61,629 nt of DNA from contig CASHTH010001844.1 of NCBI GenBank assembly GCA_030341885.1, positions 1 through 61,629 on the forward strand. Direction: 5' to 3'. Below are positions 3,741-21,951 of this stretch, one piece after another. A program made the position numbers and the translations under genes. Below the pieces are notes generated by a model. That model saw only the letters and a program-made list of their open reading frames with translations, made no database searches and was not told the origin of the DNA. The DNA is from Geodia barretti (Eukaryota). Each line of letters begins with the position of its first letter. Positions within the stretch are counted from its first letter, which is position 1.

Positions 3741-4059
3741 GTAAATTTTGTCTGAATCAGGTAAAGATTGGATGAGTCAGGTAACCTTTTGGCCCCTGCA
3801 CTGTTGTGTAGTACCGACGATCAAAGCCATTTTTCTCCCAAGAAAGTTTTAGACTCTTGGCTTTTGGTATAATATACAGATGATATTATTTTGGCCTCGT
3901 ATGTTATTATGTAGTACCAACAAACAAACTCACACTCATATTTTTTTCTCCCGAGAAAGTTTTAGACTCTTCGCGTTTCGTACACATAATATTATTTTGG
4001 CCTTGTACACATTATGTAGTACCAAGAGAATGTAGCAACCAAAGCTTCAACTCTTGTTG

Positions 4060-5590
4060 ACAAGTTGGAGCTGCCGTTCATACTGTATGCTTGTGTGGTC
4101 TTCACTGAGCAACGTAACTAGCAGGACCCTGCATCAAGTTCATACTGTATGCTTGTGTGGTCTTCACTGAGTAACTATATAGCAGGACCCTGCATCAAGT
4201 TCATACTGTATGCTTGTGTGGTCTTCACTGAGTAACTATATAGCAGGACCCTGCATCAAGTTCATACTGTATGCTTGTGTGGTCTTCACTGAGTAACTAT
4301 ATAGCAGGACCCTGCATCAAGTTCATACTGTATGCTCACGTGGTCCTCACTGAGCAACGTAACTAGCAGGACCCTGCATCAAGTTCATACTGTATGCTCG
4401 CGTGGTCTTCACTGAGTAACTATATAGCAGGACCCTGCATCAAGTTCATACTGTATGCTTGTGTGGTCTTCACTGAGTAACTATATAGCAGGACCCTGCA
4501 TCAAGTTCATACTGTATGCTTGTGTGGTCTTCACTGAGTAACTATATAGCAGGACCCTGCATCAAGTTCATACTGTATGCTTGTGTGGTCTTCACTGAGT
4601 AACTATATAGCAGGACCCTGCATCAAGTTCATACTGTATGCTTGTGTGGTCTTCACTGAGTAACTATATAGCAGGACCCTGCATCAAGTTCATACTGTAT
4701 GCTCACGTGGTCCTCACTGAGCAACGTAACTAGCAGGACCCTGCATCAAGTTCATACTGTATGCTCGCGTGGTCTTCACTGAGTAACTATATAGCAGGAC
4801 CCTGCATCAAGTTCATACTGTATGCTTGTGTGGTCTTCACTGAGTAACTATATAGCAGGACCCTGCATCAAGTTCATACTGTATGCTTGTGTGGTCTTCA
4901 CTGAGTAACTATATAGCAGGACCCTGCATCAAGTTCATACTGTATGCTTGTGTGGTCTTCACTGAGTAACTATATAGCAGGACCCTGCATCAAGTTCATA
5001 CTGTATGCTCGCGTGGTCCTCACTGAATAACTATATAGCAGGACCCTGCATCAAGTTCATACTGTATGCTCACGTGGTCCTCACTGAGCAACGTAACTAG
5101 CAGGACCCTGCATCAAGTTCATACTGTATGCTCGCGTGGTCTTCACTGAGCAACGTAACTAGCAGGACCCTGCATCAAGTTCATACTGTATGCTCACGTG
5201 GTCCTCACTGAGCAACGTAACTAGCAGGACCCTGCATCAAGTTCATAGCTCGCGTGGTCCTCACTGAGCAACGTAACTAGCAGGACCCTGCATCAAGTTC
5301 ATAGTGTATGCTTGCGTGGTCCTCACCGAGCAACGTAACTAGCAGGACCCTGCATCAAGTTCATAGCTCGCGTGGTCCTCACTGAGCAACGTAACTAGCA
5401 GGACCCTGCATCAAGTTCATAGCTCGCGTGGTCCTCACTGAGCAACGTAACTAGCAGGACCCTGCATCAAGTTCATACTGTATGCTTGCGTGGTCCTCAC
5501 TGAGCAACGTAACTAGCAGGACCCTGCATCAAGTTCATAGCTCGCGTGGTCCTCACTGAGTATAACTATATAGCAACGTAACTAGCAGGA
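4060..5590. repeat. intronic minisatellite, ~61-bp unit, ~24 copies
   Basis: The unit caggaccctgcatcaagttcatactgtatgcttgtgtggtcttcactgagtaactatatag repeats with variants (gcaacgtaactag / ctcacgtgg). Confidence 0.95.
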
Positions 5591-5880
5591 CCCTGCATCA
5601 AGGTCACAATCACTATAGTGGGATTTTACTTAGGACCCTGCATCAAGTTTACAATCACTATAGTAGGATTTTATACGTATGTTCAATTAAAGGGAACGTG
5701 GCAGTATATAAAGGCTAAATACTAAAAACAATAGGGGCACAGTGAAAGAATACATTTCAGTTCCGGTTTTTAGTAACATTTCTAAATTTAGCCGTATGTA
5801 CTGCCACATTGTTTCCTACTATGGCAAACTTTTGTTGGTTTCTACGTAACTTGCTACGTTCATTTCCGTTCCCTCGGCAG

Positions 5881-6076
5881 CTCCACGGCCAACCGGCATT
5901 TCCTCAGAGCCATGGCGAGGGTCGGCGCCGGTTGCGAAGAGTTCTTCGACCCAAAGACCAAGTCTCGTTGGGAGAGAAAGGTCAGAGGTCAGCTGGCCAA
6001 GGCGTTCCAGCCGGCGCTGACGGCATTGTCGGTCGAGTGGCAGCAGTTCGACGACAACGCCCCCAAACCAGTCCAG
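5881..6076 (+). CDS. VWA5A-like exon
   Basis: ctcggcag| acceptor and CAG|gtagcc donor. Translates SSTANRHFLRAMARVGAGCEEFFDPKTKSRWERKVRGQLAKAFQPALTALSVEWQQFDDNAPKPVQ, matching IKGIARASGGTSEFITGKDRMQSKALRTLKRSLQP. Confidence 0.75.
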
Positions 6077-6281
6077 GTAGCCAAGGGGTTAAATTTAGTT
6101 CAAAGCAAGTATTGATGGGTTAACTGTGAGGTCCAGTCTAGTTAGTTTTTTGGGGTTAAATTTGATTCCATGTAGATAAAAACCAGCCCTGTGTACTTAG
6201 GGAGTTAAATATACAACTGAGCTCCACGACTATACAAGTGTGTGAAGAGAGGAAAAAATTCATTCTGTGTGTGTTCCAATA

Positions 6282-6356
6282 GGCTCCTCAGGAGATGGTG
6301 TCACTGTTTAGTGGTTCGAGACAAGTTGTCTACGGCTTTGTTCCTCACTGCAAACA
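6282..6356 (+). CDS. VWA5A-like exon
   Basis: ccaatag| acceptor and CAG|gtatcc donor. Translates APQEMVSLFSGSRQVVYGFVPHCKQ, matching EQTVIFRGQRLISYAQLTG. Confidence 0.6.
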
Positions 6357-6843
6357 GGTATCCACTTATATACATATACATACAGTACTTGCTACTAGAT
6401 ACTAGAGGAATGTGACGTAGAACATTGTGCAATGGTGCAAGCATTTCAATGTTTCGTGTGTGTTTGGCTCGTATTTAGAATCACGTAAACGACATTACGG
6501 TATGTTGGTCTGTGGGTCGGTTGACGGTTGCATACATAAAGATTCCGCATTCAGACGCCTAGGCACTTGCCAACTAAGGGTATATACTCGATACTGAATT
6601 GAGGCATAATACCTCACAATATTATGCTGATAAAAAATCATTAAAGTATGAGTGACACGAAGTGGTTGATTCAACCAACCAGTATCAAGTTTTTCAAGGC
6701 AGCAAAACTCTTATCCACACAACACACGATATGATCAATATTCTGGTACGTAGCAAATATTTTGTCCTCACACATTTGTTGTACGTAGACGTCTACATTA
6801 TAAAGTAACTGCAGTTCTTCTGAGGAGCTGTATTCTCGTCGTC

Positions 6844-7778
6844 TCACTTCACATACAGCTCCAAATGGGAGATGATAACGTTGGAATACTGCGACGTGTG
6901 GTGGTTACATATTCGGACTTCAATCGGTCCGCTGGTTGGTTCCGGGAGTGCCTGGCTGAAACACAGCGGGCCGTCAAACTGACAGCATCTTCCTTCGTAA
7001 TTACACCCGTCACCATCCCATAGAACGTCGTCTGAGTGTAGGTGGTATCCGCTTGATCCGTAGGGGGCATTGTTCCCTGATTCGCAGTACCAACAGGCGC
7101 CGACAAACGAAGGAATGAAAGTTGCGCTTACTTGTTCGCACGGACAGAACCAGTTTTGACGGTTGGAAGTTGCACGTTCGTAGCGCCCGGCTGCATACGT
7201 CCACACGTGTTGCCGTGGGTTACCGCGAGTTATGCTCACCCCCGTCACGTAGCTGTCGTCAATAGTGATGCTCCTGTTGAGATGGCTCGTGTAGAAAGCT
7301 TCCGTACTCCCAAATTGGTATCCCTGAACAACTCCGCAAATCTGGGAATACGAACCTTCGACCTCGAACTTTACCGAGTCACAAGTTTTCTCTTCGTGTG
7401 ACTCTCGGCCACACCCCCTTGCCGGGGGAGGAGTGAGGTGCCAACCGGCGGGACATGTATAGCGGGTATCCGACAGGTTATGATAGGCGACCTTGCGCCA
7501 GCCGCAGCAGCCGCCACACTCGCAGAGGGAGGGAGGGTCGGGTGGGGGGCAGGCCGGCTCCGTCGATGGTGGACACGTGTCTTGTGATGGTGGCGGGGAG
7601 GAAGTGTCTTCAAGCTGGGTGGGAATTTCTGGGCACCTGGTTTGTGGCTCGTCTGTGCATTTTCCAATGCCTTCAACGACGTCTGTGTTTAGGGTTAGCA
7701 ATTGTGCCTTTGAGGCAGTTGATAGCTTCAAGTAGGTCTGGAGGTTGGGACAAAGAGATGAAACAAGCATGCCTGTAT
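6844..7778 (-). CDS. nested antisense gene exon 2: secreted cysteine-rich protein, function unknown
   Basis: Acceptor gtgcgtgcag|AT continues the phase of exon 1 into the 314-aa ORF 6844..7788. The product has Pro/Ser/Thr-rich linkers and many Cys (CECGGCCGW, WFCPCE, WYCESG, GDGCNYEGRCCQFDG), ending ...IEVRICNHHTSQYSNVIISHLELYVK. The gene lies entirely within intron 10 of the VWA5A-like gene on the opposite strand. Confidence 0.55.
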
Positions 7779-8021
7779 CTGCACGCACAAGTTTACACGT
7801 CAGCTGGACAACTTGTCTCAGCTTTGTGTACTTTAAACTTTCGTTTCGTGCAAAAAAAGTGCAAAAGTGGTTGGCAGGTGTGTTCTGATGCCATTTTACT
7901 TAACTCGTTTCAGAAAGCTGTTTGTCGCGTTTATGTGTGCATGCAGCGTTTATGAGGTATGAATTTTTAACTTGACTTAAAGGCACAAACAATGCTAGTC
8001 ACATACCCATTGTCAAAGTAC

Positions 8022-8109
8022 CTGATCCAATGTCTTGATTTCCTTCATTCTGCATGGAAGAGCACTGGATAAGACCAGCCACGAATACAGCCAGTAGCGA
8101 AAACTTCAT
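8022..8109 (-). CDS. nested antisense gene exon 1: start codon and signal peptide
   Basis: The minus strand has ATG at 8109-8107. Translates MKFSLLAVFVAGLIQCSSMQNEGNQDIGS, a hydrophobic signal-peptide-like N-terminus. Donor CAG|gtactt. Confidence 0.5.
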
Positions 8110-8589
8110 CTTTCTCTCTCTCGTCTTCCTTCGGCTTAGCTTTCCCTTCTTCTCTCCTTCAAACCAGAAAGACCAACTGCGACTAGCTTCTGAGCTGCAG
8201 TTGCTTTATATAACCGCAGGTGCTCGTGACGTGTGCCTCTTGACTCTTTAGTAGTAGTCTTATCACTAGAGAGCATACTGAAAATGCGGGAGCGATTTGG
8301 GAGTTTTTTACTGATAGCTTTCCCATGTCTGCTCTGGTAGAAAATAGACCTGTTTGTCACAATTGTTAGACCGAGCTCTTATCGCCATCTTTCTGTTTAT
8401 TTCTCTTTTTGTGCCACTAAACTGAAATCTTGTCTTCCTCTCTCTCTTTCTCTGTCCTGTATATTACTTCTATTTCCTTTTTCTTTTTCCTCTATTCCCC
8501 TTGTATGTTTCTTGTGCTAATAAGAAATACTCTATAACTGCTACAGACTAGTTAAGCTAGTATATGTGCATGCAGTAATGACAATCAGT

Positions 8590-8745
8590 ACATTAGTTTT
8601 CTTTTTCTCTCTCCTCCTCCCCTCCCTTTCCTCCTCCCTCCCTTTCCTCTCCTCCCTCCCTTCCTCCTCCCTCCCTCCCTTCCTCCTCCCTCCTCCCTCT
8701 CCCTCCCTTCCTCCCTTCCTCCTCCCTCCTCCCTCCCTCCTCCCC
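8590..8745. repeat. CT-rich low-complexity tract
   Basis: ctcctccctccctttcctcc reiterated. It forms the polypyrimidine run ahead of exon 8748. Confidence 0.8.
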
Positions 8746-8747
8746 AG

Positions 8748-8828
8748 GCGACACTAAAAGCCAAGATAGGCGGCAAAGAAGTACAGACTATGGTATCTAC
8801 CACTGACCTTGCCATGACACAAGGCAGA
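8748..8828 (+). CDS. VWA5A-like exon
   Basis: tccccag| acceptor after a CT-rich tract and AGA|gtgaga donor. Translates ATLKAKIGGKEVQTMVSTTDLAMTQGR. Confidence 0.55.
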
Positions 8829-9105
8829 GTGAGACAATCAACTCTATATACTTACAATTTCACTTCAACATCCTACCTTACCTTTACAAGCAATCCTTAT
8901 GTTGTCAAGGTTCAAAACAAGCCTAGCTGTAATATAAAGTCCGTTTGCCGAATTACACCATGAAAAGTGATTGTGCTACTTGCAATTTTACTCACTGAAA
9001 GTATATAATTAAGCGGGATTCACTTTATAAATGCACTAGTAGATACTACTAGTAGATGTATATACCGAGTATGGTGTTACAGATGACTGTATGTGCATGT
9101 GTTAG

Positions 9106-9186
9106 ATGTTGCACCAGTTGACAGCCAGAGCCATCATCAGGGACTGGACCGACGGCTGTCTGAGTCGTGACAAGATGGAGCACGAG
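9106..9186 (+). CDS. VWA5A-like exon
   Basis: gtgttag| acceptor and GAG|gtgacc donor. Translates MLHQLTARAIIRDWTDGCLSRDKMEHE, matching TIHRLAAKSLLQTKDMG. Confidence 0.6.
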
Positions 9187-9195
9187 GTGACCTAC

Positions 9196-9420
9196 CTCTT
9201 CTTTCTTTACTTCCTCTCCCTTTCCTCCATCGTTCACCTTCTCTCCCTTCTCTCCCTTCTTTCTTTAATTCCTCTCCCTTTCCTCCATCGTTCACCTTCT
9301 CTCCCTTCTCTCCCTTCTTTCTTTACTTCCTCTCCCTTTCCTCCATCGTTCACCTTCTCTCCCTTCTCTCCCTTCTTCTTTACTCTCTCTCCCTTTCCTC
9401 CATTGTTCACCTTCTCTCTC
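9196..9420. repeat. ~56-bp tandem repeat x4
   Basis: cttctttctttacttcctctccctttcctccatcgttcaccttctctcccttctctc reiterated directly after exon 9106-9186. Confidence 0.8.
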
Positions 9421-9635
9421 TCCTTTTACCAAGGCTTTACTGTTTCCCTTTAGAACTGATATATTTGCATCAATGGACTCCATTTTGTTTGCCAATGTAC
9501 ATTTAGTTATCAGTGCATGCATTTGTATATTTTAACCTGCCTTTTCGTCACTAAAGGCTTTGGAGTACATGTTCACTATCATTTGAAAATAAATTTTCTG
9601 TGCATAATTCACTTCTCTTGTTGAAAACATCTCAG

Positions 9636-9737
9636 ATTGTGAAGAAAGAGAGAAAATCGTTCATTATCAACATCTCTAAAGACTATTCCATCGTCTCTCA
9701 GTTTACCAGTTTCGTTGCCATCGAAGAGAGAGAAAGG
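9636..9737 (+). CDS. VWA5A-like exon
   Basis: tctcag| acceptor and AGG|gtgagg donor. Translates IVKKERKSFIINISKDYSIVSQFTSFVAIEERER, matching LNLSLESGVISSFTAFIAINKELN. Confidence 0.65.
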
Positions 9738-9798
9738 GTGAGGTCGTTACGAGGTGGGGTTTCCCCCATTTGACCACCCTATGTTGCTATGGATACAG

Positions 9799-9915
9799 GA
9801 TGAGGTGTTTGACCAAAGGAACGGCCCCGCTATCAGTGACCTGGTTGCCAAGGAGACGGTGGACAAGTTGGCGTACATGGGTTGGGATTTGGATGAGTCA
9901 GCAGATCCTGTCAAG
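9799..9915 (+). CDS. VWA5A-like exon
   Basis: atacag| acceptor and AAG|gtgggc donor. Translates DEVFDQRNGPAISDLVAKETVDKLAYMGWDLDESADPVK. Confidence 0.55.
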
Positions 9916-10023
9916 GTGGGCATTAATTGTAGTATTGTCAATTGAAGTAAAAAAAAAGTCTGATGTCCGTCTCAATGCTACAGTTTTTCCTGGTTTGAAC
10001 TTAGCATTTCTGCCCTGTTCAGG

Positions 10024-10137
10024 AGGCAGAGGAGGCGTTGGAAGAGTGCCAGATGTCAGGTGATCTGGAGAAGAGGAAGAGACTGCTGAGGGAGACCGAG
10101 ACAGTCCTTGGTCCGACCCACCCTCTCCGATTCCAGG
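10024..10137 (+). CDS. VWA5A-like gene exon
   Basis: ctgttcag| acceptor and CAG|gtgagg donor. Translates EAEEALEECQMSGDLEKRKRLLRETETVLGPTHPLRFQ. Phase 0 on both sides. Confidence 0.5.
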
Positions 10138-10496
10138 TGAGGCACCGGGAGAAACACGGTGTTATGAGGAGAGTTTTTCACATGTCTATAGCACATTCGC
10201 AAATTCTTTTAGAAAGTTTGTTTGTTGGTAACTAGATTTTTGGGAACATGTGTCTGTTTATGTCTAAGGAAAGGTATAAAAATGGATTTTACCCCAAAAC
10301 TTGCTAGATACGTATAAACGCAATGGCAGGTGCACGCAAACAAACAAAACCAGAGAGAAACACCAATTTTTGAAGGCTCTGTACTTTGTAAGGCCGACTG
10401 TTGCTCTGCCTACTGCTACCATAATCCAAAGTTTACCACAAGCTTTATCACATGTTTGTAATTTTTCTCACTTCAACATCCATGTATATTTTACAG

Positions 10497-10645
10497 GTCT
10501 TCAAAAATTTGACGACTGAAATGCTCTCGAAAAACCAGCCCAAAGAAGCATATGAGGTTGCCATGGCAATGCAGTCCCAATTAGAGCTCACCTACACGTC
10601 AGATGCAGCACGCTACTTGGAAGATGTAAAGCAGTTTATAGCAAC
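10497..10645 (+). CDS. exon linking the VWA gene to the 14-3-3-like terminal exon
   Basis: tttacag| acceptor and AC|gtgagt donor, ending in phase 2. Translates VFKNLTTEMLSKNQPKEAYEVAMAMQSQLELTYTSDAARYLEDVKQFIA(T). Confidence 0.5.
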
Positions 10646-10981
10646 GTGAGTGCATTACACAATATATAAAGTATTACTTTAAACTATGTTTTTGAGGGAA
10701 AATTCAAAATTTGCAGACACAAATTTTTGTGTGAGTAAATCTATTCTCTTTTTCACCATTAAGGGTATGTACACAGCAGTATATTTATCAGGCTTGACCG
10801 TCTTTTAATTTTTAACTGTCTTTTTGACCATTATACAAGTATGACCATTAAGTGTACATATGTAGCAGTATACAACAGAGACTTGTTAATTTTGACTCTT
10901 GTTTTCCAACCATTCAGATATGTAGCTACGTAGCAGTAACCTTCAGGTTCATTTTTACTCTCTTTCTCTTCTTTTCGCCAG

Positions 10982-11801
10982 GACCATAGAGCCACAGGCC
11001 AAGCGAGACGACTACCTAAACCTAGCAAAGGAGGCGGAAGCAGCCAAAGACTATTCCGCTGCTCTGAACTACCTCAAACTAGCCGATCGTGGAAAGGTCA
11101 CCGCGTCTTCCGTCACTCTCCCTCTTCTCTCTCGCTGTCTGAGAGGGCTATGTCGCGACCCCGCCCACGACTGGAAGAAGCTTTCTCGTGAGACCACGCC
11201 CGAGGATAGAGAGGGGCTGAGAAAGATGAGAATGGTGGCGGAGGAAATCGAGGACGTGTGTTCGGAGGTCTCGAGTCTAACCAAAAGTATGTCTTCCCGA
11301 TCCACTGAGCTTGGCTTTCTCAAGATTGGTCGTGGACCCAATGAAGTTTCTTTTCTTCGGATGAAGATAAATATCGAATGTCTACGCTACCGCCACGAAC
11401 TCAGCCCAGACGACGAGAAACTGAGGCAACGGGTGGACGCTCTGCAAAAGTCGGCGCTGAGGTATGCACAGGGTCACCTCCCCAATCACCCCGCGAGGCT
11501 AGAAATTATCCTCGATCGGTGCCGATTTCTGAGAGAGACGGAACCGCAGGAAGCGCTTCGACTGGCAAAGACGACGTTCGACGAGGCAGTCTCGAGTCTC
11601 GATTCGCTCGCGGAGGACTCGTACAGAGAGACGACTCTGGCCCTGCAGGAGTTGAGGGACCACGTGACGGTGTGGGGGGAGGAGGAGAGGGAGAAGGAGA
11701 GGGTGAGGGAGGAGGCCAGGAGGAGAGAGGAAGAGAAGGCGAGGGAAAGGGAAAGGAAGGAGGAAGAAAAGAGACAAAGACAAGCGGAAACGAAACGGTA
11801 A
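10982..11801 (+). CDS. terminal exon encoding a divergent 14-3-3-like domain (in frame with the VWA5A-like gene)
   Basis: ttcgccag| acceptor. Its single leading base completes the split Thr codon left by the upstream phase-2 donor, and the exon runs as a continuous ORF to TAA at 11799-11801. The product RDDYLNLAKEAEAAKDYSAAL...VSFLRMKINIECLRYRHEL...HPARLEIILDRCRFLRETEPQEALRLAKTTFDEAVSSLDSLAEDSYRETTLALQELRDHVTVW aligns helix by helix to 14-3-3: [86 protein letters not shown]. It ends in a K/E/R-rich tail. Confidence 0.65.
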
Positions 11802-11995
11802 AATCAAGATAATTTTAAGACAACAAACATATGAGGCTTAAGTGGACATCAGCGGAGGCTTGTGCTATAGTTTTTTGAAGACGTTACCTGTAAGTTATGA
11901 GGGTAACAAGGCTTTTAATGTCGGATTGGCTGCCTAGTTAATCGTCTGAATTTTCAGTGTTTTATTTGTCAGTGGATAATAATAATTCTGGTGTT

Positions 11996-12135
11996 ATGTG
12001 TGACATTCAGAGCTGAGGTGCCACGCCCACCACCGCCTCCCCCGGTATCCCAATTAGAACCCGTCGTCCTGGGAGACGAGGACTTATATGTGAAGAAAGC
12101 TCTCGTAATTGACACGGGAATGGCCACCGTCAAGG
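11996..12135 (+). CDS. actin-N-terminus-like gene exon 1 (Pro-rich extension plus actin residues ~1-18)
   Basis: ATG at 11996. Translates MWTFRAEVPRPPPPPPVSQLEPVVLGDEDLYVKKALVIDTGMATVK, where actin has DDDIAALVVDNGSGMCK. Donor AAG|gtttgt. Confidence 0.55.
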
Positions 12136-12397
12136 TTTGTATGTACTAACAACCTCATTCATTAGACCGTGGCCATTGCCTCTGGCTCTCAGGTTATACT
12201 GCCCATTTTAAGTGGCTGCAGAAGACGCACGGTGGAAAACTTCCCCAAAATGAGGACACATCTCTTATACCTTTAAAGGACACCTTTTCTTTCCCCAAGA
12301 ACAGTTCTCGCATGCAATTTAACCCCTTAAGCAAGGAGCCTCTAATATTCCCTTATTCGTAAGGGTCACTGTACTATTGATGGTGCAACTCTTGCAG

Positions 12398-12466
12398 GCT
12401 GGATATGCAGGAGATGATGTTCCAAGAGCAGTGTTTGCCAGTCTTGTTGGAAGACCTCGCCACCAG
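12398..12466 (+). CDS. actin-N-terminus-like gene exon 2
   Basis: cttgcag| acceptor and CAG|gtacat donor. Translates [23 protein letters not shown], which is almost identical to actin [23 protein letters not shown]. Confidence 0.7.
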
Positions 12467-12589
12467 GTACATACATACGTATACCTCTCTCTCTGTTCCT
12501 AGCGTGTGAATGAGTTTTAGCGTGGCCTATACTTTTAGCAGGGAAAAGACTGGCCAAGCAATACCTAGACTATAGCTTTTCGTACTTTT

Positions 12590-13150
12590 AGCAAGCAAGT
12601 GGGGTGAAGGACAGGCCAACAAACCATTCTGAATATCTTGACTTTAGCTGGAGTGTGCTGTGGAAATAGGGTGGCCTAAACTGTTCGTACTTTTAGCAAG
12701 CAAGTGGGGTGAAGGACAGGCCAACAAACAATTCTGAATACCTTGACTATAGCTGGAGTGTGCTGTGGAAATAGGGTGGCCTAACCTTTCGTTAGCAAGT
12801 GGGGTGAAGGACACCCAAGAAACCATTCTGAATACCTTGACTATAGCTGGAGTGTGCTGTGGAAATAGGGTGGCCTAACCTTTCGTACTTCTAGCAAGTG
12901 GGGTGAAGGACACCCAAGAAACCATTCTGAATACCTTGACTATAGCTGGAGTGTGCTGTGGAAATAGGGTGGCCTAAACTGTTCGTACTTTTAGCAAGCC
13001 AGTGGGGTGAAGGACAGCCCAACAAACCATTCTGAATACCTTGTCTATAGCTGGAGTGTGCTGTGGAAGTAATATGGTGGCCTAAACCTTTTGTACTCTT
13101 AGCAAACAAGTGGGGTGAAGGACACCCAAGAAACCATTCTGAATACCTTG
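12590..13150. repeat. ~115-bp tandem repeat x5 (intronic)
   Basis: The unit caagtggggtgaaggacaggccaacaaaccattctgaataccttgactatagctggagtgtgctgtggaaatagggtggcctaaactgttcgtacttttagcaag repeats with variants. Confidence 0.9.
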
Positions 13151-13213
13151 ACTATAGCTGGAGTGTGCTGTGCTAATAATTCTCCTTCTCCTTCCCCTTC
13201 CTCCCTCCACCAG

Positions 13214-13556
13214 GGAGTGATGGTAGGCATGGGTCAGAAGGACAGCTACGTGGGAGATGAAGCACAGAGCAAACGAGGCATCCTCACAATGTCCAGTCCA
13301 TTCCAGAGAACGTCTCGGGCTCGGGCTCCGACTGGGGGTCCGCCTCGAGCTCGGGCTTGGGATGGGGGTCTGAGGCGGTCTCGGGCTCTGGCTACAGGGG
13401 CTCTGAGTGGTCTTCCGAGTCGGGTTCCGAGTTTTTCTGCGTCTGAGAGCGCTCCGCAAGTGTCGGCAAAAGAAGGGTTTCGTCATGAACTTGAGATGCA
13501 GGAAGAAATCTCGAGGCCTATGAGAGAGCTGGAAAAGGCCAAAGAAAAGTTGACAG
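13214..13556 (+). CDS. actin-N-terminus-like gene exon 3: actin homology ends after ~26 aa, then unrelated Ser/Arg/Pro-rich and coiled-coil sequence
   Basis: ccaccag| acceptor. Translates [25 protein letters not shown], which is actin residues ~55-79. It then continues [14 protein letters not shown]...[25 protein letters not shown] to donor CAG|gtgaca. The 3' extent is uncertain. Confidence 0.45.
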
Positions 13557-14148
13557 GTGACATGCAGTACTATGTGCTTTGCCAACAGATCTCAAGTCTG
13601 TGTGTCAGTAATGTATTATTACCAGTCAGGCTTAATGTGCACACACCAGTAACACCATGCATGCTTGCGAAAGTTTTTATCTATAAACAAGTGTAATGTT
13701 ATAAGGACGCTTGCTTTGGCCAAATTGTAGTACATACGTACGTAAGTAATGTCTTCTCTTCCCCCAGCTAGGTCAGATTACTACCTTAGGCATGTGGTAA
13801 GGGATTTTATTCCAAAAATATAAGATGCCTTGTGATAAAATCCGTGGGAGCAAACTTCCAAAATTTGGGTAAATGACCAAAATCTTGTGTTTATACATAC
13901 AGTATATACCAGCATACTGCAGTGTGTTGATGCAGTATTATTTCTACATACAGCGATAAGGAAATCAAGGTCACAACGAGAGGCCAAAGCAGATGCCGAT
14001 GTGGAGAAAGATGGAAAATTCGTTGGTATGACGTACTATATAATTACATTACGCTACATTATGTACGCATTAGAGAGTAATAATATTTTGCTATCTTGGG
14101 GCAGTGTTAAGTGAAGTTCAGTGCTAAATATGTTGCAAGGCTAGCAAC

Positions 14149-16270
14149 ATGATGCATGCGGCAGGCCACGCAAGCCATTTCTATCCTCCCTCTACATGGT
14201 GGTGCATGATGCATGCGGCAGGCCACGCAAGCCATTTCTATCCTCCCTCTACATGGTGGTGGGACATGGTGCGGTGCGGCAGGCCACGCAAGCCATTTCT
14301 ATCCTCCCTCTACATTGTGGTGTGGCACGGTGCATGCGGCAGGCCACGCAAGCCATTTCTATCCTCCCTCTACATGGTGGTGCATGGTGCATGCGGCAGG
14401 CCACGCAAGCCATTTCTATCCTTCCTCTACATGGTGGTGTGGCACGGTGCATGCGGCAGGCCACGCAAGCCATTTCTATCCTCCCTCTACATGGTGGTGC
14501 ATGATGCATGCGGCAGGGCACGCAAGCCATTTCTATCCTCCCTCTACATGGTGGTGCATGATGCATGCGGCAGGCCACGCAAGCCATTTCTCTCCTCCCT
14601 CTACATGGTGGTGCACGGTGCATGCGGCAGGCCACGCAAGCCATTTCTATCCTCCCTCTACATGGTGGTGCATGGTGCATGCGGCAGGCCACGCAAGCCA
14701 TTTCTATCCTCCCTCTACATGGTGGTGCACGGTGCATGCGGCAGGCCACGCAAGCCATTTCTCTCCTCCCTCTACATGGTGGTGCACGGTGCATGCGGCA
14801 GGCCACGCAAGCCATTTCTATCCTCCCTCTACATGGTGGTGCATGGTGCATGCGGCAGGCCACGCAAGCCATTTCTATCCTCCCTCTACATGGTGGTGTG
14901 GCACGGTGCATGCGGCAGGCCACGCAAGCCATTTCTATCCTCCCTCTACATGGTGGTGCATGATGCATGCGGCAGGCCACGCAAGCCATTTCTATCCTCC
15001 CTCTACATGGTGGTGCATGATGCATGCGGCAGGCCACGCAAGCCATTTCTATCCTCCCTCTACATGGTGTTGTGGCACGGTGCATGCAGGCAGCAGCCAT
15101 TTATCTCCCTCTACAGGTGGTGGCCGTGCATGGGCAGCACGCAAGCCATTTCTATCCTCCCTCTACATGGTGGTGTGGCACGGTGCATGCGGCAGGCCAC
15201 GCAAGCCATTTCTATCCTCCCTCTACATGGTGGTGCATGATGCATGCGGCAGGCCACGCAAGCCATTTCTCTCCTCCCTCTACATGGTGGTGCATGGTGC
15301 ATGCGGCAGGCCACGCAAGCCATTTCTATCCTCCCTCTACATGGTGGTGCACGGTGCATGCGGCAGGCCACGCAAGCCATTTCTATCCTCCCTCTACATG
15401 GTGGTGCACGGTGCATGCGGCAGGCCACGCAAGCCATTTCTATCCTCCCTCTACATGGTGGTGCACGGTGCATGCGGCAGGCCACGCAAGCCATTTCTAT
15501 CCTCCCTCTACATGGTGGTGCACGGTGCATGCGGCAGGCCACGCAAGCCATTTCTATCCTCCCTCTACATGGTGGTGTGGCACGGTACATGCGGCAGGCC
15601 ACGCAAGCCATTTCTATCCTCCCTCTACATGGTGGTGTGGCACGGTGCATGCGGCAGGCCACGCAAGCCATTTCTATCCTCCCTCTACATGGTGGTGCAT
15701 GATGCATGCGGCAGGCCACGCAAGCCATTTCTATCCTCCCTCTACATGGTGGTGTGGCATGGTGCATGCGGCAGGCCACGCAAGCCATTTCTATCCTCCC
15801 TCTACATGGTGGTGCATGGTGCATGCGGCAGGCCACGCAAGCCATTTCTATCCTCCCTCTTCATGGTGGTGCATGGTGCATGCGGCAGGCCACGCAAGCC
15901 ATTTCTATCCTCCCTCTACATGGTGGTGCATGGTGCATGCGGCAGGCCACGCAAGCCATTTCTATCCTCCCTCTACATGGTGGTGTGGCATGGTGCATGC
16001 GGCAGGCCACGCAAGCCATTTCTATCCTCCCTCTACATGGTGGTGCATGGTGCATGCGGCAGGCCACGCAAGCCATTTCTATCCTCCCTCTACATGGTGG
16101 TGCATGGTGCATGCGGCAGGCCACGCAAGCCATTTCTATCCTCCCTCTACATGGTGGTGCATGGTGCATGCGGCAGGCCACGCAAGGATGCAAGCCATTT
16201 CTATCCTCCCTCGGCATGGTGGTGCATGGTGCAGTGCGGCACGGTGCACATTAGTGCAATATGTTGAACC
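14149..16270. repeat. 2.1-kb minisatellite, 57-bp unit with 63-bp variants, ~35 copies
   Basis: The unit catgcggcaggccacgcaagccatttctatcctccctctacatggtggtgcatg(g/a)tg repeats. The unit length is a multiple of 3, so every frame on both strands stays open. This creates the 684-, 420-, 363- and 283-aa ORFs in the track. Confidence 0.95.
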
Positions 16271-16404
16271 CAGCTTTCAACACTGATCATATGGCATGAC
16301 TTGTCATTTTACATGTTTCTTTCAAATCCCAAACTTGATTATTTGTATCTCAACAGAATCGCGACAGAGTCGCACCCCCCGAATATATGATTTTAGCTGT
16401 GCTA

Positions 16405-17762
16405 TGGGGAAACCTTCTCCACTGCCTCCCACCAAAGCTGTTCCACCAAGTGCGCCCACCCGACTATCCTCAGAGCTCCGTTCTATTGAAAAACCTCTTC
16501 CACCTCCTCCCCCTGAAGAAGAAGAAGAAGAGTTGTATGACTTAGCGCTCCCTTCTTCCCCTACACCAGCCAGAAACGAGGGGTATCTACTCTCATCCTT
16601 GTCTGATGTGACGGCTACAGCAGAACCTGCAACCAACAGTGGGTATATACGGTCTAAAGTGAGGGCTATACGGTTGCATGGTCGACCACGTGGCGTAGTG
16701 AGAGCAGCTGGGAAAGTTCACTCCCGATCTGGTATACCTACCGATGTGCCGGTCGGAGCCAGTCTCAACCTCTCTACAATAGAAATTGATGCGAAGAGCC
16801 TAACTTCTCCAGAGGTGGATAAATTAGTAGCAGAGGACGATCTTTTCGGAGACACCGAAATGTATTCTGCAATCTCAGCATCAGACGCTGCTGCCCCATT
16901 GCCACCTCCGGGAAGGAGGGCATTCCGTTCTCCAGTTCGAGGTCCTCCACCTGGACCCAGTGTCGTTTCTATGAGTCTCAGGATGCCATCTCTGACAAGG
17001 AGGAGATCCCCTCAAGTTCGATGTCCTCCACCTGGACCCAGTGTCGATTCTATGAGTTTCAGGATGCCACCTACTGCAGCAGCTGGTGGTCCCCCACCCC
17101 CACCCCCTGATCTCATTTGTTATGATGCCCCACGCCCACTTTATTCCGCTGCATTTGGTTATGGTGGCATACCCCCACCCCCTCCAACACGTGGTGGTCC
17201 CCCACCCCCACCCCCTCCAACATTCGGTGGACCCCCACCCCCTAGAGCACCGATGCCTGCGTCTGCACCTCCACCCCCTCCACTGCCCGGTGGTGCACCG
17301 CCCCAACCCCCTGAGGCACCAAAAATTGCACCTGGTGGTCCCCCACCCCCGGCCCCACCTCGTCAGTTGTTTCGAGGCATCATGCGTGCACGAGGCAAAT
17401 GTTCTTCTCTCAAGAAAATAGAAACTTCCGATGATGAAGAGCCCCGACTATCAAGCATGCCTTTCGTTAGGGGGCCAAGGCGACAGCCTGTCAGCGACAA
17501 GACTACAGGACGCTCTTCTTTTCTCGCCAAGGCGTTGAAGGAAAAAGTTGCTGCAGCCCCCTCTCCCCCTCTCCCTCCTCCTCCTCCTTCTTCCTCTGCT
17601 ACATTGGCAAGCAAGAAGTTTGCTCCTCCTGTTGCTCCACGTTGTTTTGGTACCAGAAACTTGCCAGAACCTCAGCCAGCACCGGGAGGAGGAGGTGGAG
17701 GAAGGGGCGGTTTGCTGTCCTCTATCAAGTCTGGAGTGAAACTGCAGGCAAGCAAGTGGTAG
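16405..17762 (+). CDS. proline-rich WH2-domain protein (WASP/WAVE-family-like nucleation-promoting factor), main exon
   Basis: Open frame from MGKPSPLPP... with several poly-Pro tracts (GGPPPPPPPTFGGPPPP, APPPPPLPGGAPPQPP) that look like profilin/SH3-binding FH1-type motifs. It ends GGGGGRGGLLSSIKSGVKLQASKW* = WH2 motif (LLxxIxxGxxL[KQ]). A GC-AG splice after ...VKLQ (~17747) would join the downstream connector and acidic exons in frame. Confidence 0.55.
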
Positions 17763-18028
17763 TGTAAACTCCTTTAAAGGAAATGAGTCAGTACATAAGG
17801 GATAGATTTTAAACTGTTACTAAACATAGAACTGAACAAGAATGCAATTGAGATTCCATTTTCAGTAATTTTTACCTTACATACTAGCTACCACATTCCC
17901 TTTAAACATGTACAATGAGTTACACACCCTCTCCTATATTATGTTTACGGAATATTGTGCTTAAAAATTGGATGATGGAGGAAAGTGTTTAAAATCTTCA
18001 TGTCATTTTTCCTTGGCTCCCCAAACAG

Positions 18029-18107
18029 AAAGCATTGGCTGCACCGAAACCATCACCACCACCAGCTGAAGATATTTCTGACGTCCTTCTTTCCCGGAGA
18101 TCAGCAG
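18029..18107 (+). CDS. candidate connector (C-region) exon of the WH2 gene
   Basis: caaacag| acceptor and G|gtttgc donor. Translates KALAAPKPSPPPAEDISDVLLSRRSA, matching the WAVE C-region NDVATILSRRIAV. Confidence 0.4.
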
Positions 18108-18469
18108 GTTTGCATTTCATGTCCTTCCCTCTTTCATAGTGTCACTTTCTCACTGTATGTTGGCCGTTTACCACTGTTAGTGTTCACGTATTAATTGACA
18201 AGCAGTGCGAGCCTACATATTATACCTATTGCTTGAATTGCACAACTTATATACTATGTGGACAAGGCACTGTTCATACCGTAATGCCTTACTCTAATTA
18301 CACGTAAAAACTGCTGAAATTTCGAACTCGCGTTTGCTCACCAATTATACTAACTTTAGGGAAGCGAACGGAAGTAAGACTGATAGAGTGCGACCTGTTA
18401 ACTGCTCCGTGAGATGTTCACGTTGTCAGTGGAGATATTGGGTGCACATAATTCAGCCGACTATAGAGT

Positions 18470-18670
18470 GTGTCTCGCTTCACTAGTCAATTACTAGTTT
18501 CGTGTCTCGCTTCACTAGTCAATTACTAGTTTAGTGTCTCGCTTCACTAGTCAATTACTAGTTTAGTGTCTCGCTTCACTCGTCAATTACTAGTTTCGTG
18601 TCTCGCTTCACTCGTCAATTACTAGTTTAGTGTCTCGCTTCACTAGTCAATTACTAGTTTAGTGTCTGGC
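18470..18670. repeat. 32-bp tandem repeat x6
   Basis: gtgtctcgcttcactagtcaattactagttt(a/c) repeated. Confidence 0.9.
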
Positions 18671-18689
18671 AACCAACATGTATGTACAT

Positions 18690-18800
18690 ACATGTGTAAA
18701 CTACGAGGTAGAAAGGCAGAGGCACAACAAACAAATCAACTACACCCAGGACAGCTCTTTTTTATAAGAGCTGTCCTAGGTGGGATTCGAATCCACGACA
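18690..18800 (-). mobile_element. 5'-truncated copy of a tRNA-derived SINE (T-arm, hairpin and conserved tail)
   Basis: ggacagctcttttttataagagctgtcc hairpin, then gggattcgaatccac T-arm-like box, then tail acaaatcaactacacccagg. The same tail is shared with the 59960-60125 and 36590-36680 copies. Confidence 0.6.
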
Positions 18801-18839
18801 AGCAAAATGTCATGTATGTACATGTGTCCATTATCTCAG

Positions 18840-18943
18840 CATTGATGACGGTGGTTTCAGCCGAGGATGGTGATTGGTCAGATGATGACAGCATTGGAGG
18901 AGGCAGTGGACCAATATATGCAGAGTGTACGTTTCTAATGTAA
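18840..18943 (+). CDS. candidate acidic (A-region) terminal exon of the WH2 gene
   Basis: tctcag| acceptor in the phase left by the previous exon. Translates (A)LMTVVSAEDGDWSDDDSIGGGSGPIYAECTFLM*. The acidic stretch with a conserved Trp is as in the VCA A-region (DEDDEWED / EVDWLE). Confidence 0.4.
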
Positions 18944-19389
18944 ATAGACATGTACTAGTAGCGTTTATGTGTCACTTCACTACAACGAAAATGTGCCATT
19001 TTCTCGAAGTGCATAAATAAAGATGACTCACACAACTGTGATCACCCGAATAATGCATCACTGTGAATTCGGGGCGAAATTTTTATAAGTGTGTAAGATT
19101 CCATTTTCAGTTCAGTCTTTTTTTAAACACAATTGGATAATCTTTATCGTTGTGTAGTCTAAGTTATACTCACACATAATAATTTTATTGTATGCATTCG
19201 TAACTAGCAATATCCGTATTGCTGAGCGACGCAAGCGCATATTCCTACTTGTTTCAATCCGGGATTTTTCTGCGTATATGTGAGAGGCATTGTCACTACA
19301 CGTACGTAGAGTAGTGTTTTGCTTGATTCCAAATACACACGTGCAGGAAGTTGAAAATTATAGTTCGCTGGCGAAAAATGTGTTGCTAT

Positions 19390-19615
19390 GTTCCCTTCTG
19401 TGTCACAGTCTCTTCGGCAAGGTCACTAATGGATGAAATGGGAGTGGTGGCAGAGACGAGGTCCATAACTGCATCACTGGAGGGAGTGAGTGAAGTAGAA
19501 ATGGTGATGGTGAATCTGCATGATAGTGAGGAAAATGAGAACGAATTGGCGAATGGATTTGAGGAGGCAGAGGCGGAGGAGGAGGAGGAGGAGGAGGGAG
19601 ATACTTGGTTCTCAG
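19390..19615 (+). CDS. R-SNARE-motif gene, upstream acidic exon (5' extent uncertain)
   Basis: Open frame ...VAETRSITASLEGVSEVEMVMVNLHDSEENENELANGFEEAEAEEEEEEEGDTWFSG, then donor G|gtgagt. Its phase matches the next exon. Confidence 0.35.
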
Positions 19616-19748
19616 GTGAGTATACATATAAGTTAGATGCAGAGTCCAGGATAAAAACGCATTAGAGAGCCGCGGGGGCCCTGACTTGATAATCACCCTT
19701 CTTTTTCTTACTGTTTTCTTCTCTTCTTCTCCCTCCCCTTTTTCTCAG

Positions 19749-20038
19749 CACCTTCATCAAATGGGAACCGTCTGCAGAATCTACAACAAGAAGTTGAACA
19801 GGCCAAGTCAACCCTCCAGGACAACATCTACAAAGTCGTAACTCGCGGAGAAAAACTAGATGATCTTGAAGAGAAAGCAGAAGCACTTCAGGTGCAGGCC
19901 TTTGCGTTTCAGAAGGCAGTGCGGAAGATTCGTCCAGATGATATTATCGCAGAAGAGGCCATGTCGAGTGACGACGAGTACCTTGGATCTAAGTTTTCGG
20001 AGGAAGATCAGTTGGCTATCTTGCCCCCATCACTGGAC
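19749..20038 (+). CDS. R-SNARE (synaptobrevin-like) coiled-coil exon
   Basis: tctcag| acceptor. Translates (A)PSSNGNRLQNLQQEVEQAKSTLQDNIYKVVTRGEKLDDLEEKAEALQVQAFAFQKAVRKIRPDD..., matching the brevin SNARE motif [48 protein letters not shown]. No TM segment follows. Donor GAC|gtgagt. Confidence 0.5.
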
Positions 20039-20404
20039 GTGAGTGTGTTTATCAGTGTAAATGGGCACCTGTAGAATGTTAAACTGGTGCTAATGGGACA
20101 TTCTATAAAAGAAACTTTGTGGTCCCACTTCATTCAGGCACTTCCCACTACATTGGTAATCATTTGCGGTCTATTTGGCAGTTTAGTTGGTGGTACTTTA
20201 AGGGGGTTCCTGTCCACATTTTTATTTATGCAAAAAAAAGTTGTCAGGTATATATACCCCTTAGCCTGTGAATGTCGGTAAATGCAAAGTTTTAGTGCCC
20301 AGCAGTTACATGCTACGTATGTGGGATTACCTCCAAAAATAAGTTTACCGACATTTTATTCTGCCAGTTTGAGACTAATGTACCAGTTCTGGTATTTTAC
20401 ACAG

Positions 20405-20579
20405 GAGGGGAGGAGGAGGAAGGAAGAGAGGTACCCGGAAGTGAGGGTCACCCAGCTGGAGGGCCTGTTCCAGAACCAACATGACACGGGGTACTGGGAA
20501 CTGGACTGTCTCGACCTGCTGCAGCTGGACTCTGAGAGGGTCAGGAACCTTCTGGAACAGTCCGGATACAAATCTCTCG
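20405..20579 (+). CDS. R-SNARE gene exon
   Basis: tacacag| acceptor and G|gtaagg donor. Translates EGRRRKEERYPEVRVTQLEGLFQNQHDTGYWELDCLDLLQLDSERVRNLLEQSGYKSL. Phases are consistent. Confidence 0.45.
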
Positions 20580-20809
20580 GTAAGGCACACGCGCCTTATA
20601 CTTTGTTTGGAGCCATGGTTTTTTTCACGGCTAGTTTTGGTTGAGTGTGCCACTCTTGCCAACTGAGTTCATATGCAAAGTTGTTTTTGCAAAGTTTGTT
20701 TTTTAGCAATTCTTTAACATGTTGTTGTGATCCTCTTTGTTTAGTATTTCTCTTTTATTGTATAGTTTTTTCTACAGTGGTAATACAAGAACCTCTCTCC
20801 CCTTCCCAG

Positions 20810-20915
20810 GTCAGTCAGTGTGCACAGACCTGCTGAGGCTTATTGCCACACTAGTCATTCTCAAAATCCTCAGTAAAGTACTGGAACACTTGTTCCCACT
20901 CTCATTCTCTCCAAG
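20810..20915 (+). CDS. R-SNARE gene exon
   Basis: ttcccag| acceptor and AG|gtaagt donor. Translates GQSVCTDLLRLIATLVILKILSKVLEHLFPLSFSP. Confidence 0.4.
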
Positions 20916-21334
20916 GTAAGTTACACATCTGGTATCTGTTAAAGGAACAGCAAGTTGGTAGCAACGCTTCTTGAGAATAATTCTTGTATAATATTAATTC
21001 TTAGCATGTTATGTAATGCTTATTCTGCGAAACCAACAAGAATTGAATTTAACTGACCAACTAATGCTCCTTGTACTTCACACGCACTATAGGAACCATT
21101 TTGATGAAGTTGGTCAACCTATTGTCCCAAATGCACGATATCTCCTCCCTGTATCTGACATGTGATGCTGCTCAATGCACACCCACAGACATTGGTATTA
21201 TTGACTTGCTTGCATTCACAGGTCAAACCATTCATTACATTCTAATAATGCTTAAGCATTTTCACATCACAGCCATCCCATTTTTTATACTATCCTACCT
21301 TATTCATTTCCCCCTCTACTGTGCCCTCTTACAG

Positions 21335-21499
21335 ACTGGCCATATGTGGCAGAGTTGACTCAGAGTTTGCAGGAGGAGTGGAGAAGGCAGTGGCCTATTT
21401 CAACCAAACTGAGTCCCGCCACCCCAGTCTGTGTGCCAGACTGGAGCTGGGCTATAGCTGGGAGGAGGCGGCCAGGAACATCATCTCACAATGTCTGTG
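21335..21499 (+). CDS. R-SNARE gene terminal exon
   Basis: tcttacag| acceptor. In phase it gives (R)LAICGRVDSEFAGGVEKAVAYFNQTESRHPSLCARLELGYSWEEAARNIISQCL* with stop TGA at ~21497. Confidence 0.4.
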
Positions 21500-21951
21500 A
21501 ACTGACATTTTTATCAGTAGCATAGAGCAAACAGGGACTGAATTTTTAAGCAACACTTTGCATGTGATGTTGTTCGTACGTAGATTTTTTGCTTGCTGCA
21601 TTTTTACACTGTACGGCCCCAACGGCACACGATTGTGCGCATGCGCCAACAATTATTTTGCTGGCGGGGGAGGTTCCCTTGGGTGTTGCGCTCGAGCCCT
21701 GACGTTTTTGCTACAAGACGCCGTAGGAGAGAGAGATCAGGGTCGAGCTGAGAGGCACGGGACTCGCAAGTGTGTAAGGTAAGGGCTGGTATTCACGGCG
21801 GTCGGTTCTGTCAGAACCTTTTGCAATTGGCGAGAGCCTGTCACCAGTAAACCAAAACTTTCCGGGCTTGTTTGGTCTGACAGACCAACAGAACAAGCGC
21901 AGAGTAATTTTTGATTTATCTAATATATTATACAGCCTTTGAAAGTCGGCC

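Follow-up and report, generated by a model that had tools for sequence, protein, structure and literature searches.

A conserved N-terminal actin fragment in the linker of a PARP4-like gene of the sponge Geodia barretti

Results

The actin-like exons are internal exons of a PARP4-like gene

The sequence analyzed here is a 61,629-nucleotide stretch of the Geodia barretti genome (GenBank assembly GCA_030341885.1, contig CASHTH010001844.1, positions 1 to 61,629 of the forward strand), referred to below as the window. It carries a PARP4-like (vault PARP) gene, and the actin-like exons at this locus are internal coding exons of that gene, which encode part of the linker between its vWA domain and its MVP-interaction (MINT) domain (Table 1). 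An initial annotation, made from the sequence alone, had described these exons (named A, B, and C here) as the first three exons of a separate gene, in which the N-terminal part of actin follows a poly-proline leader and then gives way to unrelated sequence.

The identity of the host gene follows from its upstream part. A 906-residue draft translation of these exons shares 54-59% identity with PARP4-like proteins of Ptychodera, Branchiostoma, Saccoglossus, and Amphiura, and its closest named relative is that of Dysidea avara (66% over the vWA region). A transcript-derived protein from the same or a sister species (P0121) is 96% identical over the draft and spans the VIT domain, the vWA domain, and the 14-3-3 exon; precomputed VIT and VWA_3 matches on this protein and its homologues show the succession of VIT and vWA that is expected of PARP4. 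The window begins within the VIT region, so that the 5' part encoding the BRCT and PARP catalytic domains lies upstream of it; full-length homologues that carry the actin fragment possess both domains. The vWA part is followed by a divergent but full-length 14-3-3-like domain (Pfam 14-3-3, E-value 2.6e-19, profile positions 2-222 of 223), which is also present in P0121. One large exon holds this highly divergent domain (70 bits); on visual inspection, a phosphopeptide-binding Arg appears to be replaced, and the R-Y pair is retained.

The 14-3-3-like domain and the actin segment C-terminal to it are encoded by consecutive in-phase exons. The ATG at 11996-11998, at which the protein had been proposed to begin with MWTFRAEV, is out of frame; the true frame reads ...LVLCVTFRAEVPRPPPPPP, that is, ...LCVTFRAEV. 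Inspection of the sequence by eye found no in-frame ATG from about 11919 to the Met inside DTGMATVK. Among the nearby candidate acceptors, compared by hand, the in-phase one is cattcag/A at 12010/12011, the partner of the 14-3-3 donor at 11797, and the joined reading across 11797/12011 is free of stops. Exon A, which does encode ...AEVPRPPPPPPVSQLEPVVLGDEDLYVKKALVIDTGMATVK, ends at 12134 and not, as previously given, at 12136.

Continuity at the RNA level comes from related species. A first protein search with the chimeric sequence was dominated by true actins, from which five specific relatives were distinct. Metagenomic relatives of exon C are P0001, P0003, and P0005, and both 14-3-3 and actin Pfam matches were found in P0007 and P0016, from contigs L001 and L004. 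These two contigs look like partly spliced transcripts, are collinear with positions 3388-13327 of the window, and share one order of elements: the vWA domain, a conserved "TARAIIRDW" region, the 14-3-3-like domain, the poly-proline stretch, the actin fragment, and an S/R-rich tail. In L004, a GT..AG intron of 57 nt is retained precisely at the boundary of ...TVK and AGIAGDD; its removal in L001 gives direct evidence for splicing at this junction. A further protein, P0241, was found with the MINT region as query; its contig, L009, is a transcript of a related species that encodes in one frame a Pro-rich stretch, a WH2 motif (LLSSIKSGMNLKKV), C and A regions, an acidic segment, an R-SNARE motif, and the PARP4_MVP-ID domain. 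Because L009 joins the Pro-rich/WH2/C/A part to the R-SNARE motif and the MVP-interaction domain, the WH2/VCA-type gene that had been placed next to the actin exons is part of the same PARP4 gene.

Taken together, these data make it very improbable that the exons form an independent small gene that has a start of its own and lies beside a distinct WH2/VCA gene. Transcripts over these exons come only from relatives, and the intergenic-looking sequence at 11800-12010 could hold a putative promoter, which would suit such a gene; it conflicts, however, with the lack of an in-frame start, with transcripts that pass from vWA and 14-3-3 into the fragment, with a WH2/VCA part carried on PARP4 mRNA, and with the position of the fragment's exons inside annotated PARP4-like genes of Dysidea avara, Ptychodera flava, and Saccostrea echinata.

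Table 1. Features of the PARP4-like gene and of its surroundings in the window.
Feature	Position	Strand	Content and borders
VIT, vWA and following conserved exons	<=1061-9885	+	906-residue draft; collinear with L004 (tblastx)
14-3-3-like exon, then E/R/K-rich coil	about 10983-11797 (start approximate)	+	donor CG/gtaaaa, phase 2
Exon A, actin module	12011-12134	+	R-AEVPRPPPPPPVSQLEPVVLG (poly-Pro), acidic DEDLY, then KKALVIDTGMATVK (actin ~8-18); same exon in Dysidea
Exon B, actin module	12398-12466	+	actin 19-41 (23 residues); AG..GT borders; same exon in Dysidea
105-bp tandem repeat, 5.8 copies, 90% match	12578-13172	.	most of intron B-C (Tandem Repeats Finder)
Exon C (13214-13556, AG..GT), actin part	13214-13288	+	actin 42-66 (25 residues), D-loop and subdomain 2
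Exon C, remainder	13289-13556	+	S/R/P-rich linker, then start of long helix; donor G/gtgaca
Exon D	13954-14025	+	talin-like helix continued (AIRKSRSQREAKADADVEKDGKFV); in-phase AG..GT; junction predicted
57-bp GC-rich minisatellite, 36 copies, 93% match	14148-16241	.	intron D-E (Tandem Repeats Finder)
Exon E	16357-17747	+	long Pro-rich, ends in WH2 (LLSSIKSGVKLQ/KA); GC donor; in-phase join from D
Exon F	18029-18107	+	SCAR/WAVE-like C DISDVLLSRRSA; in-phase join
Exon G	18840-18926	+	acidic-Trp A EDGDWSDDD; in-phase join
Exon H	19409-19615	+	acidic
Exon I	19749-20038	+	R-SNARE motif with zero-layer Arg (Pfam Synaptobrevin)
Exons J-L	20405-20579, 20810-20915, 21335-21500	+	MVP-interaction (MINT) domain; stop 21498-21500
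Tandem array, period about 61 bp	4020-5560		repeated open reading frame "QDPASSSYCMLVWSSLSN"; intron of vWA part
Cys-rich open reading frame, 314 residues	6844-7788	-	nested in PARP4 intron between exons 6283-6378 and 8748-8831; no Pfam match
SH3-like exons	22282-22982	+	weak Pfam SH3_2
P-loop/GTPase-like open reading frame, 749 residues	24001-26590	+	GPAGVGKTS ... DTGGQ; no Pfam match
6-phosphofructokinase	26535-29159	+	Pfam PFK, E-value ~1e-190
6-phosphofructokinase	29764-32292	-	Pfam PFK, E-value ~1e-190
TRIM-like cluster	33607-48478	-	open reading frames 33607-35643, 37801-38751, 39631-40155, 41999-42550, 48026-48478

Only the N-terminal part of actin is present

A tblastn search with human beta-actin recovered two actin-like exons, at 13208-13309 (E-value 1.4e-13) and 12389-12466 (E-value 2.4e-8); the two strands of the 61.6-kb window gave no other credible match. 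The spliced peptide matches the Pfam Actin profile (PF00022, E-value 2.4e-14) over positions 5-66 of 410 only. The actin similarity that had been noticed in exons B and C is thus confirmed, as is the poly-proline leader with ...KKALVIDTGMATVK in exon A, and beyond GILT the frame stays open through S/R/P-rich and then helical non-actin sequence to the GT donor after 13556. The part of exon C beyond the actin residues is conserved but fast-evolving in P0003 and P0005. In the intron between exons B and C, the last copy of the 105-bp repeat is also found upstream of exon C in the relatives L002 and L006.

Over the aligned segment, the module is 66% identical to human beta-actin, and the D-loop residues G42-D51 are the same in both. 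Unlike conventional actin, it comprises about 60 of some 375 residues, so that the complete four-subdomain fold is absent, with no trace of subdomains 3 or 4. The acidic DEDLY of exon A resembles the actin N-terminus; the phosphate-1 loop, DNGSG in actin, reads DTGMA here and has thereby lost its GSG, and the phosphate-2 and adenosine motifs fall in the absent parts. Judged against the structure of actin, such a piece should be unable to act as an ATPase or as a filament subunit. Since the search with full actin returned only the two known exons, a normal actin gene can be rejected. An ordinary actin gene with very long introns has nothing but the N-terminal match in its favor; in the window it would have to do without any further actin similarity, and the frame runs into unrelated conserved sequence common to the relatives, so that we regard it as practically excluded. 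The alternative that the locus holds an actin-derived chimera is supported by these results and by orthologues in five other species, which carry the same N-terminal piece.

The tail leads from the actin module to the MVP-interaction domain

From the actin module onward, a twelve-exon model (12011-21500) is stop-free, encodes 1036 residues, and has AG/GT borders throughout except for one GC donor. Its residues 447-982 are 70% identical to the reading frame of L009 (582 aligned columns). The long helix that begins in exon C continues into exon D, and an I/LWEQ match spans the junction of these exons at an E-value of 7.4e-5, below the Pfam cut-off, and over profile positions 110-150 of 151 only. 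The best Protein Data Bank match of this helix is the talin-1 dimerization helix (2qdq, E-value 0.052); in the Pfam and Protein Data Bank comparisons the resemblance is helix-sized, and the full THATCH core of ~150 residues with its dimerization helix, as in talin or HIP1R I/LWEQ domains, was not found. The minisatellite between exons D and E yields long spurious open reading frames on both strands.

Exon E is collinear with L009 (...LLSSIKSGMNLKKVPAAPKP...), and its WH2 motif (LLSSIKSGVKLQKA) gives a weak Pfam WH2 match below the cut-off (E-value 2.4e-4). The motifs of exons F and G occur in the same order and length in L009, and we take them to resemble the C and A regions of WAVE. No N-terminal WAVE/WASP homology domain was found by Pfam in the pieces scanned or by eye in the remaining tail. 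The R-SNARE motif matches Pfam Synaptobrevin (E-value 2.7e-14, profile positions 3-58 of 89). At the end of the protein, 20405-21497 matches residues 1577-1704 of human PARP4 (phmmer against the Protein Data Bank, entries 11jf, 9bw6, and 9bw7; E-value 1.6e-7), and the homologue P0241 has a weak PF26156 (PARP4_MVP-ID) match, which together provide the C-terminal MVP-interaction domain expected of PARP4. A Pfam scan of the MINT exon alone gave no match; its homology was recognized through the human PARP4 sequence.

The same fragment recurs in PARP4-like proteins of several animal phyla

The same piece of actin is found in PARP4-like proteins of the sponge Dysidea avara, the brittle star Amphiura filiformis, the acorn worm Ptychodera flava, and the oysters Saccostrea, Pinctada, and Magallana. 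In five of these species the Pfam actin match covers only profile positions ~2-54 or 2-65 of 410; for Amphiura, the fragment was recognized in the sequence itself and located with tblastn. Depending on the species, the fragment ends at about residue 51-66: homology reaches GILT (residue 66) in sponges and in the species of L001, and oysters and Ptychodera diverge after about residue 57. The Amphiura equivalent of exon C (...GILTLKGPIEHRI) remains homologous up to about residue 75. When the copies are aligned with human actin, G36-R39 are invariant, and variation is absent or minimal in G42-D51 (the D-loop) and at Y53, G55, and E57; the D-loop is thus almost unchanged in PARP4 tails of sponge, oyster, and hemichordate. 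The phosphate-1 GSG is lost in every PARP4 copy aligned, and most copies have a run of acidic residues in front of the fragment, much like the N-terminus of actin.

Intron positions within the fragment vary. Introns after K18 and after residue 41 are present in the window and in Dysidea avara (the first after ..TVK), and in the species of L004 the K18 intron is retained and the residue-41 intron is spliced out of the transcript. Amphiura has residues 1-41 in one exon, with no intron after K18; its 41/42 intron is probable, given that the annotated model continues past Q41 and the equivalent of exon C lies about 4 kb downstream. In Ptychodera and Saccostrea, the fragment is contained in a single exon without either intron. 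The junction 41/42 is a classical actin intron position, which makes an origin of the fragment from an intron-bearing actin gene plausible, though not proven. The earlier argument that the introns match the capture of a genuine actin 5' end holds for the position after codon 41, which is shared by the window, Dysidea avara, and apparently Amphiura, but it is not decisive, given the single exons of Ptychodera and Saccostrea. Being mixed, the intron positions were discarded as proof that the fragment was captured from an actin gene in the genome.

The annotated models of these genes show further peculiarities. In Amphiura filiformis (L010, 87206-88508), a unit that encodes 24 residues and takes in the start of the intron recurs eight more times, with a period of ~170 bp, past the end of the annotated PARP4 model. 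Some ~2.5 kb further on (90992-91096), the equivalent of exon C carries a gene annotation of its own, and the gene called after it is HSP70-like. In Dysidea avara (L005, 49357-49626), MINT-like sequence (...RKHPSLYKRLELGNSWDE...) occurs ~1.7 kb past the annotated end of P0215, so that the public model seems to be truncated. The Ptychodera model stops right after the actin fragment.

The fragment is conserved by selection and has no confidently predicted fold

Between exon C and its close relatives L002 and L006, a manual count on the alignment gave three synonymous and no non-synonymous differences in the 25 actin codons; with 91-96% nucleotide identity including introns, these sequences are too similar for more than counting. 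The non-actin tail of exon C shows many amino acid changes against the same relatives. Among distant relatives, the proportion of synonymous differences (pS) is 0.77-0.82 and that of non-synonymous differences (pN) is 0.12-0.21; as synonymous divergence is saturated at this distance, the comparison shows no more than that pN lies far below pS. Between the window and L001, 52 of 60 residues of the actin core are identical (manual count), compared with only ~50% in the vWA regions. The actin core is thus far better kept than the vWA domain, so that the fragment is kept near actin by selection, and by these sequence comparisons the piece is a module under strong purifying selection.

These patterns also bear on the view that the exons are a decaying, non-coding actin pseudogene fragment in a PARP4 intron, a form of the pseudogene possibility raised by the initial annotation. 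A fragment restricted to part of actin and surrounded by tandem repeats would fit decay. Frame breaks, lost splice signals, and a neutral substitution pattern were looked for and are absent; the frame is open, the AG/GT borders are intact, pN lies far below saturated pS, amino acids are conserved across phyla, and the exons are spliced into mRNA in a relative. Decay is accordingly all but excluded.

In an AlphaFold2 prediction of the module, the actin part has pLDDT values below 50 and no secondary structure, and a long helix with pLDDT 70-92 spans query residues 153-198, the talin-like segment. This model gives a faint indication that the actin fragment may not fold alone. A fragment without a predicted fold is consistent with its place in a linker that is predicted to be disordered in mammals.

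Other modules accompany the fragment in PARP4 linkers

The modules found next to the actin fragment differ in kind and order between phyla. The linker in the window contains a divergent full 14-3-3 domain, the talin-like helix, the WAVE-like Pro-rich/WH2/C/A part, and the R-SNARE motif. In Dysidea, a ubiquitin-like domain without the terminal GG precedes the actin fragment, which is followed by an R-SNARE-like coil. An R-SNARE fragment lies directly before the actin fragment in Saccostrea, and a nearly complete calmodulin-like sequence directly after it in Pinctada. Magallana carries a fragment of the HSP70 substrate-binding region (profile positions 417-517 of 599), and Ptychodera and Branchiostoma have only the C-terminal third of 14-3-3.

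A motif like ...D(M/L)(G/A)F(A/N)L(F/M)(G)DD occurs in several tails, that of a fish PARP4 among them. It resembles the conserved peptide at the C-terminus of P-stalk proteins of the ribosome, as do the linker motifs SDMDMGFALMDDE, DVDMAFALFDDDDD, and DDLGFNLFGDDDD from P0156 (fish PARP4) and from P0143 and P0149 (oysters). For Aplysia PARP4, a PF00428 match is listed among the precomputed ones.

Neighboring genes

The remainder of the window holds several other coding features (Table 1). The SH3-like exons directly after PARP4 were considered as part of its tail and rejected, because they lie beyond the stop codon; they presumably belong to the next gene. The 749-residue reading frame is uninterrupted and is followed by a weak Death-domain match (E-value 2.5e-4). 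The two 6-phosphofructokinase reading frames are full-length, uninterrupted, and convergent, lie about 600 bp apart, and are intronless, unlike the neighboring genes. The cluster on the reverse strand consists of RING/B-box-like and fibronectin-III plus glycine-rich reading frames and looks like a tandemly expanded TRIM-like family.

Discussion

We consider it probable, at roughly 0.8, that the actin-like exons encode a conserved module of the PARP4 linker that copies the N-terminal ~66 residues of actin and serves as a tethered, non-polymerizing mimic of the actin surface. The module comprises a mimic of the acidic N-terminus, the first subdomain-1 beta-hairpins, and, with the DNase-I-binding (D) loop included, subdomain 2; in this lineage, it is preceded by a poly-proline stretch. 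With subdomains 3 and 4 missing and the phosphate loop degenerate, we infer that it would neither bind nucleotide nor polymerize. The surface that appears to be conserved is formed by residues 20-57 and chiefly by the D-loop, with which actin touches the neighboring subunit and several actin-binding proteins. The module is most likely a tethered and largely unfolded mimic of this subdomain-2/D-loop surface; it would bind something that recognizes this face of G-actin and thereby bring a partner to PARP4 or to the vault. It would act beside mimics of other hub surfaces, namely 14-3-3, the talin C-terminal helix, WAVE-type WH2/C/A, and an R-SNARE, and in other species the companions would be ubiquitin, calmodulin, and an HSP70 substrate-binding fragment.

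Several points weigh against this interpretation. The function is derived wholly from sequence. The PARP catalytic part of the gene lies outside the window, the transcripts across the actin exons all come from relatives, and the junctions from exon C to D and from D to E rest solely on splice phase and on the weak I/LWEQ match across the first of them. Some of the gene models compared are automatic predictions, and those of Dysidea and Amphiura are visibly truncated. The low AlphaFold2 confidence stems from an alignment of 11 sequences and is no proof of disorder. Finally, the fragment may go back to a single ancient capture, to repeated capture, or to gene conversion by actin genes.

The general architecture was described by Perina et al (2014; PMC4245714), who found that PARP4-like proteins of amoebae, lancelet, sea urchin, and Capsaspora carry a 14-3-3 domain in addition to VIT and vWA. 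They also mentioned an "additional domain at C-terminus ... (e.g. actin)" and ubiquitin-related domains, and interpreted these additions as a link to the cytoskeleton (PMC4245714). The gene in the window resembles these proteins in the succession of VIT, vWA, 14-3-3, and actin segment, and it also has the C-terminal MVP-interaction domain. It differs in that the published "actin" is a Pfam-level label, whereas the segment seen here and in the PARP4 tails of the six other animals covers actin ~1-55/66 only and has a degenerate nucleotide loop, and in the addition of the talin-like helix, the WAVE-like Pro-rich/WH2/C/A part, and the R-SNARE motif.

A link to the cytoskeleton could take a more active form, in which the linker is an actin-assembly or nucleation tail that couples vaults and PARP4 to actin networks and, through the R-SNARE, to membranes. 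Each module would have its part in such a tail: the poly-proline stretch as a docking site for profilin, the actin fragment and WH2 as ligands of G-actin, C/A as the activator of Arp2/3, and the talin-like helix as an element that binds to F-actin or dimerizes on it. Most modules between 14-3-3 and the SNARE are indeed actin-related (poly-proline, actin 1-66, the talin-like helix, and WH2/C/A with its conserved Trp), and the actin and actin-binding domains of PARP4-like proteins have been interpreted as a cytoskeletal connection (Perina et al, 2014; PMC4245714). In other phyla, however, the fragment is flanked by ubiquitin-like, calmodulin-like, HSP70, and R-SNARE sequences rather than by actin regulators, and the WH2 and I/LWEQ matches fall below the Pfam cut-offs. 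Moreover, if the tail lies inside the vault lumen as human PARP4 does, which cryo-electron microscopy reports would imply, filaments would be out of its reach. We therefore regard an assembly tail as unlikely.

The region of mammalian PARP4 that corresponds to this linker, some 360 residues between the vWA and MVP-binding parts, has been described as disordered, under recurrent positive selection, and a proposed host-pathogen interface (Daugherty et al, 2014; PMC4038475). This exon-30 region occupies the same position in the protein, and its disorder is matched by the sponge fragment without a predicted fold; in contrast to the conserved, actin-derived sponge module, it evolves fast and has no recognizable homology. 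A second alternative, which we regard as equally unlikely, is that the actin piece and its neighbors form an array of baits or integrated decoys, which would copy host proteins that effectors commonly bind or modify and would capture or sense such pathogen effectors. The modules copy conserved hub proteins and vary between phyla, G42-D51 and G36-R39 are kept while the GSG of the nucleotide loop has degenerated, the ubiquitin-like copy lacks its C-terminal GG, and the equivalent mammalian linker is the positively selected, proposed site of pathogen contact (PMC4038475). Against this, neither experiment nor sequence points to an interaction with a pathogen, our literature searches found no paper tying PARP4 to decoys, and proteins thought of as common effector targets could equally be abundant interaction hubs.

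Integrated decoy domains are carried by plant NLR immune receptors. By analogy, these receptors likewise hold fragments of host proteins in a larger protein, with a composition that varies between lineages; PARP4, however, is not a demonstrated immune receptor and has no known effector interaction. It is a doubtful though conceivable idea that the stretch from vWA to MINT in invertebrate PARP4 works as a "bait line", a modular series of hub-protein copies that are themselves non-functional, are tethered to the vault wall, and would capture or sense pathogen effectors directed at those hubs. Among the copies found are those of calmodulin, of ubiquitin without GG, of 14-3-3, and of actin 1-66, together with an HSP70 substrate-binding fragment, an R-SNARE motif, WAVE VCA, a talin helix, and a tail like that of the ribosomal P-stalk. 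That the disordered, fast-evolving exon 30 of mammals is its degenerate descendant is no less speculative.

A further case for comparison is POTE-actin of primates, a nearly complete, recent actin retrocopy fused to the C-terminus of an unrelated gene. The two cases share an actin-derived sequence joined in frame with the 3' part of an unrelated gene; the PARP4 piece differs in being short, ancient, internal, and, in sponges, intron-containing.

The association of PARP4, 14-3-3, and actin has been known since 2014, and the apparent orphan chimera with actin turns out to belong to a PARP4 gene. Literature searches returned no paper on the actin part as an N-terminal fragment only, on the other modules, or on a bait role, and nothing relevant on PARP4 with decoy, calmodulin, or synaptobrevin. 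Two aspects are therefore apparently undescribed: the "actin domain" of PARP4 is always the same N-terminal piece of ~55-66 residues with a nearly invariant D-loop, and this piece is one of several short copies of hub proteins in a linker that is disordered and positively selected in mammals. If true, the array of effector-capturing copies would provide a testable immune role for the vault, a particle without a known function since 1986. If the modules are interaction mimics, as we favor, they point to binding partners of PARP4 and perhaps of the vault.

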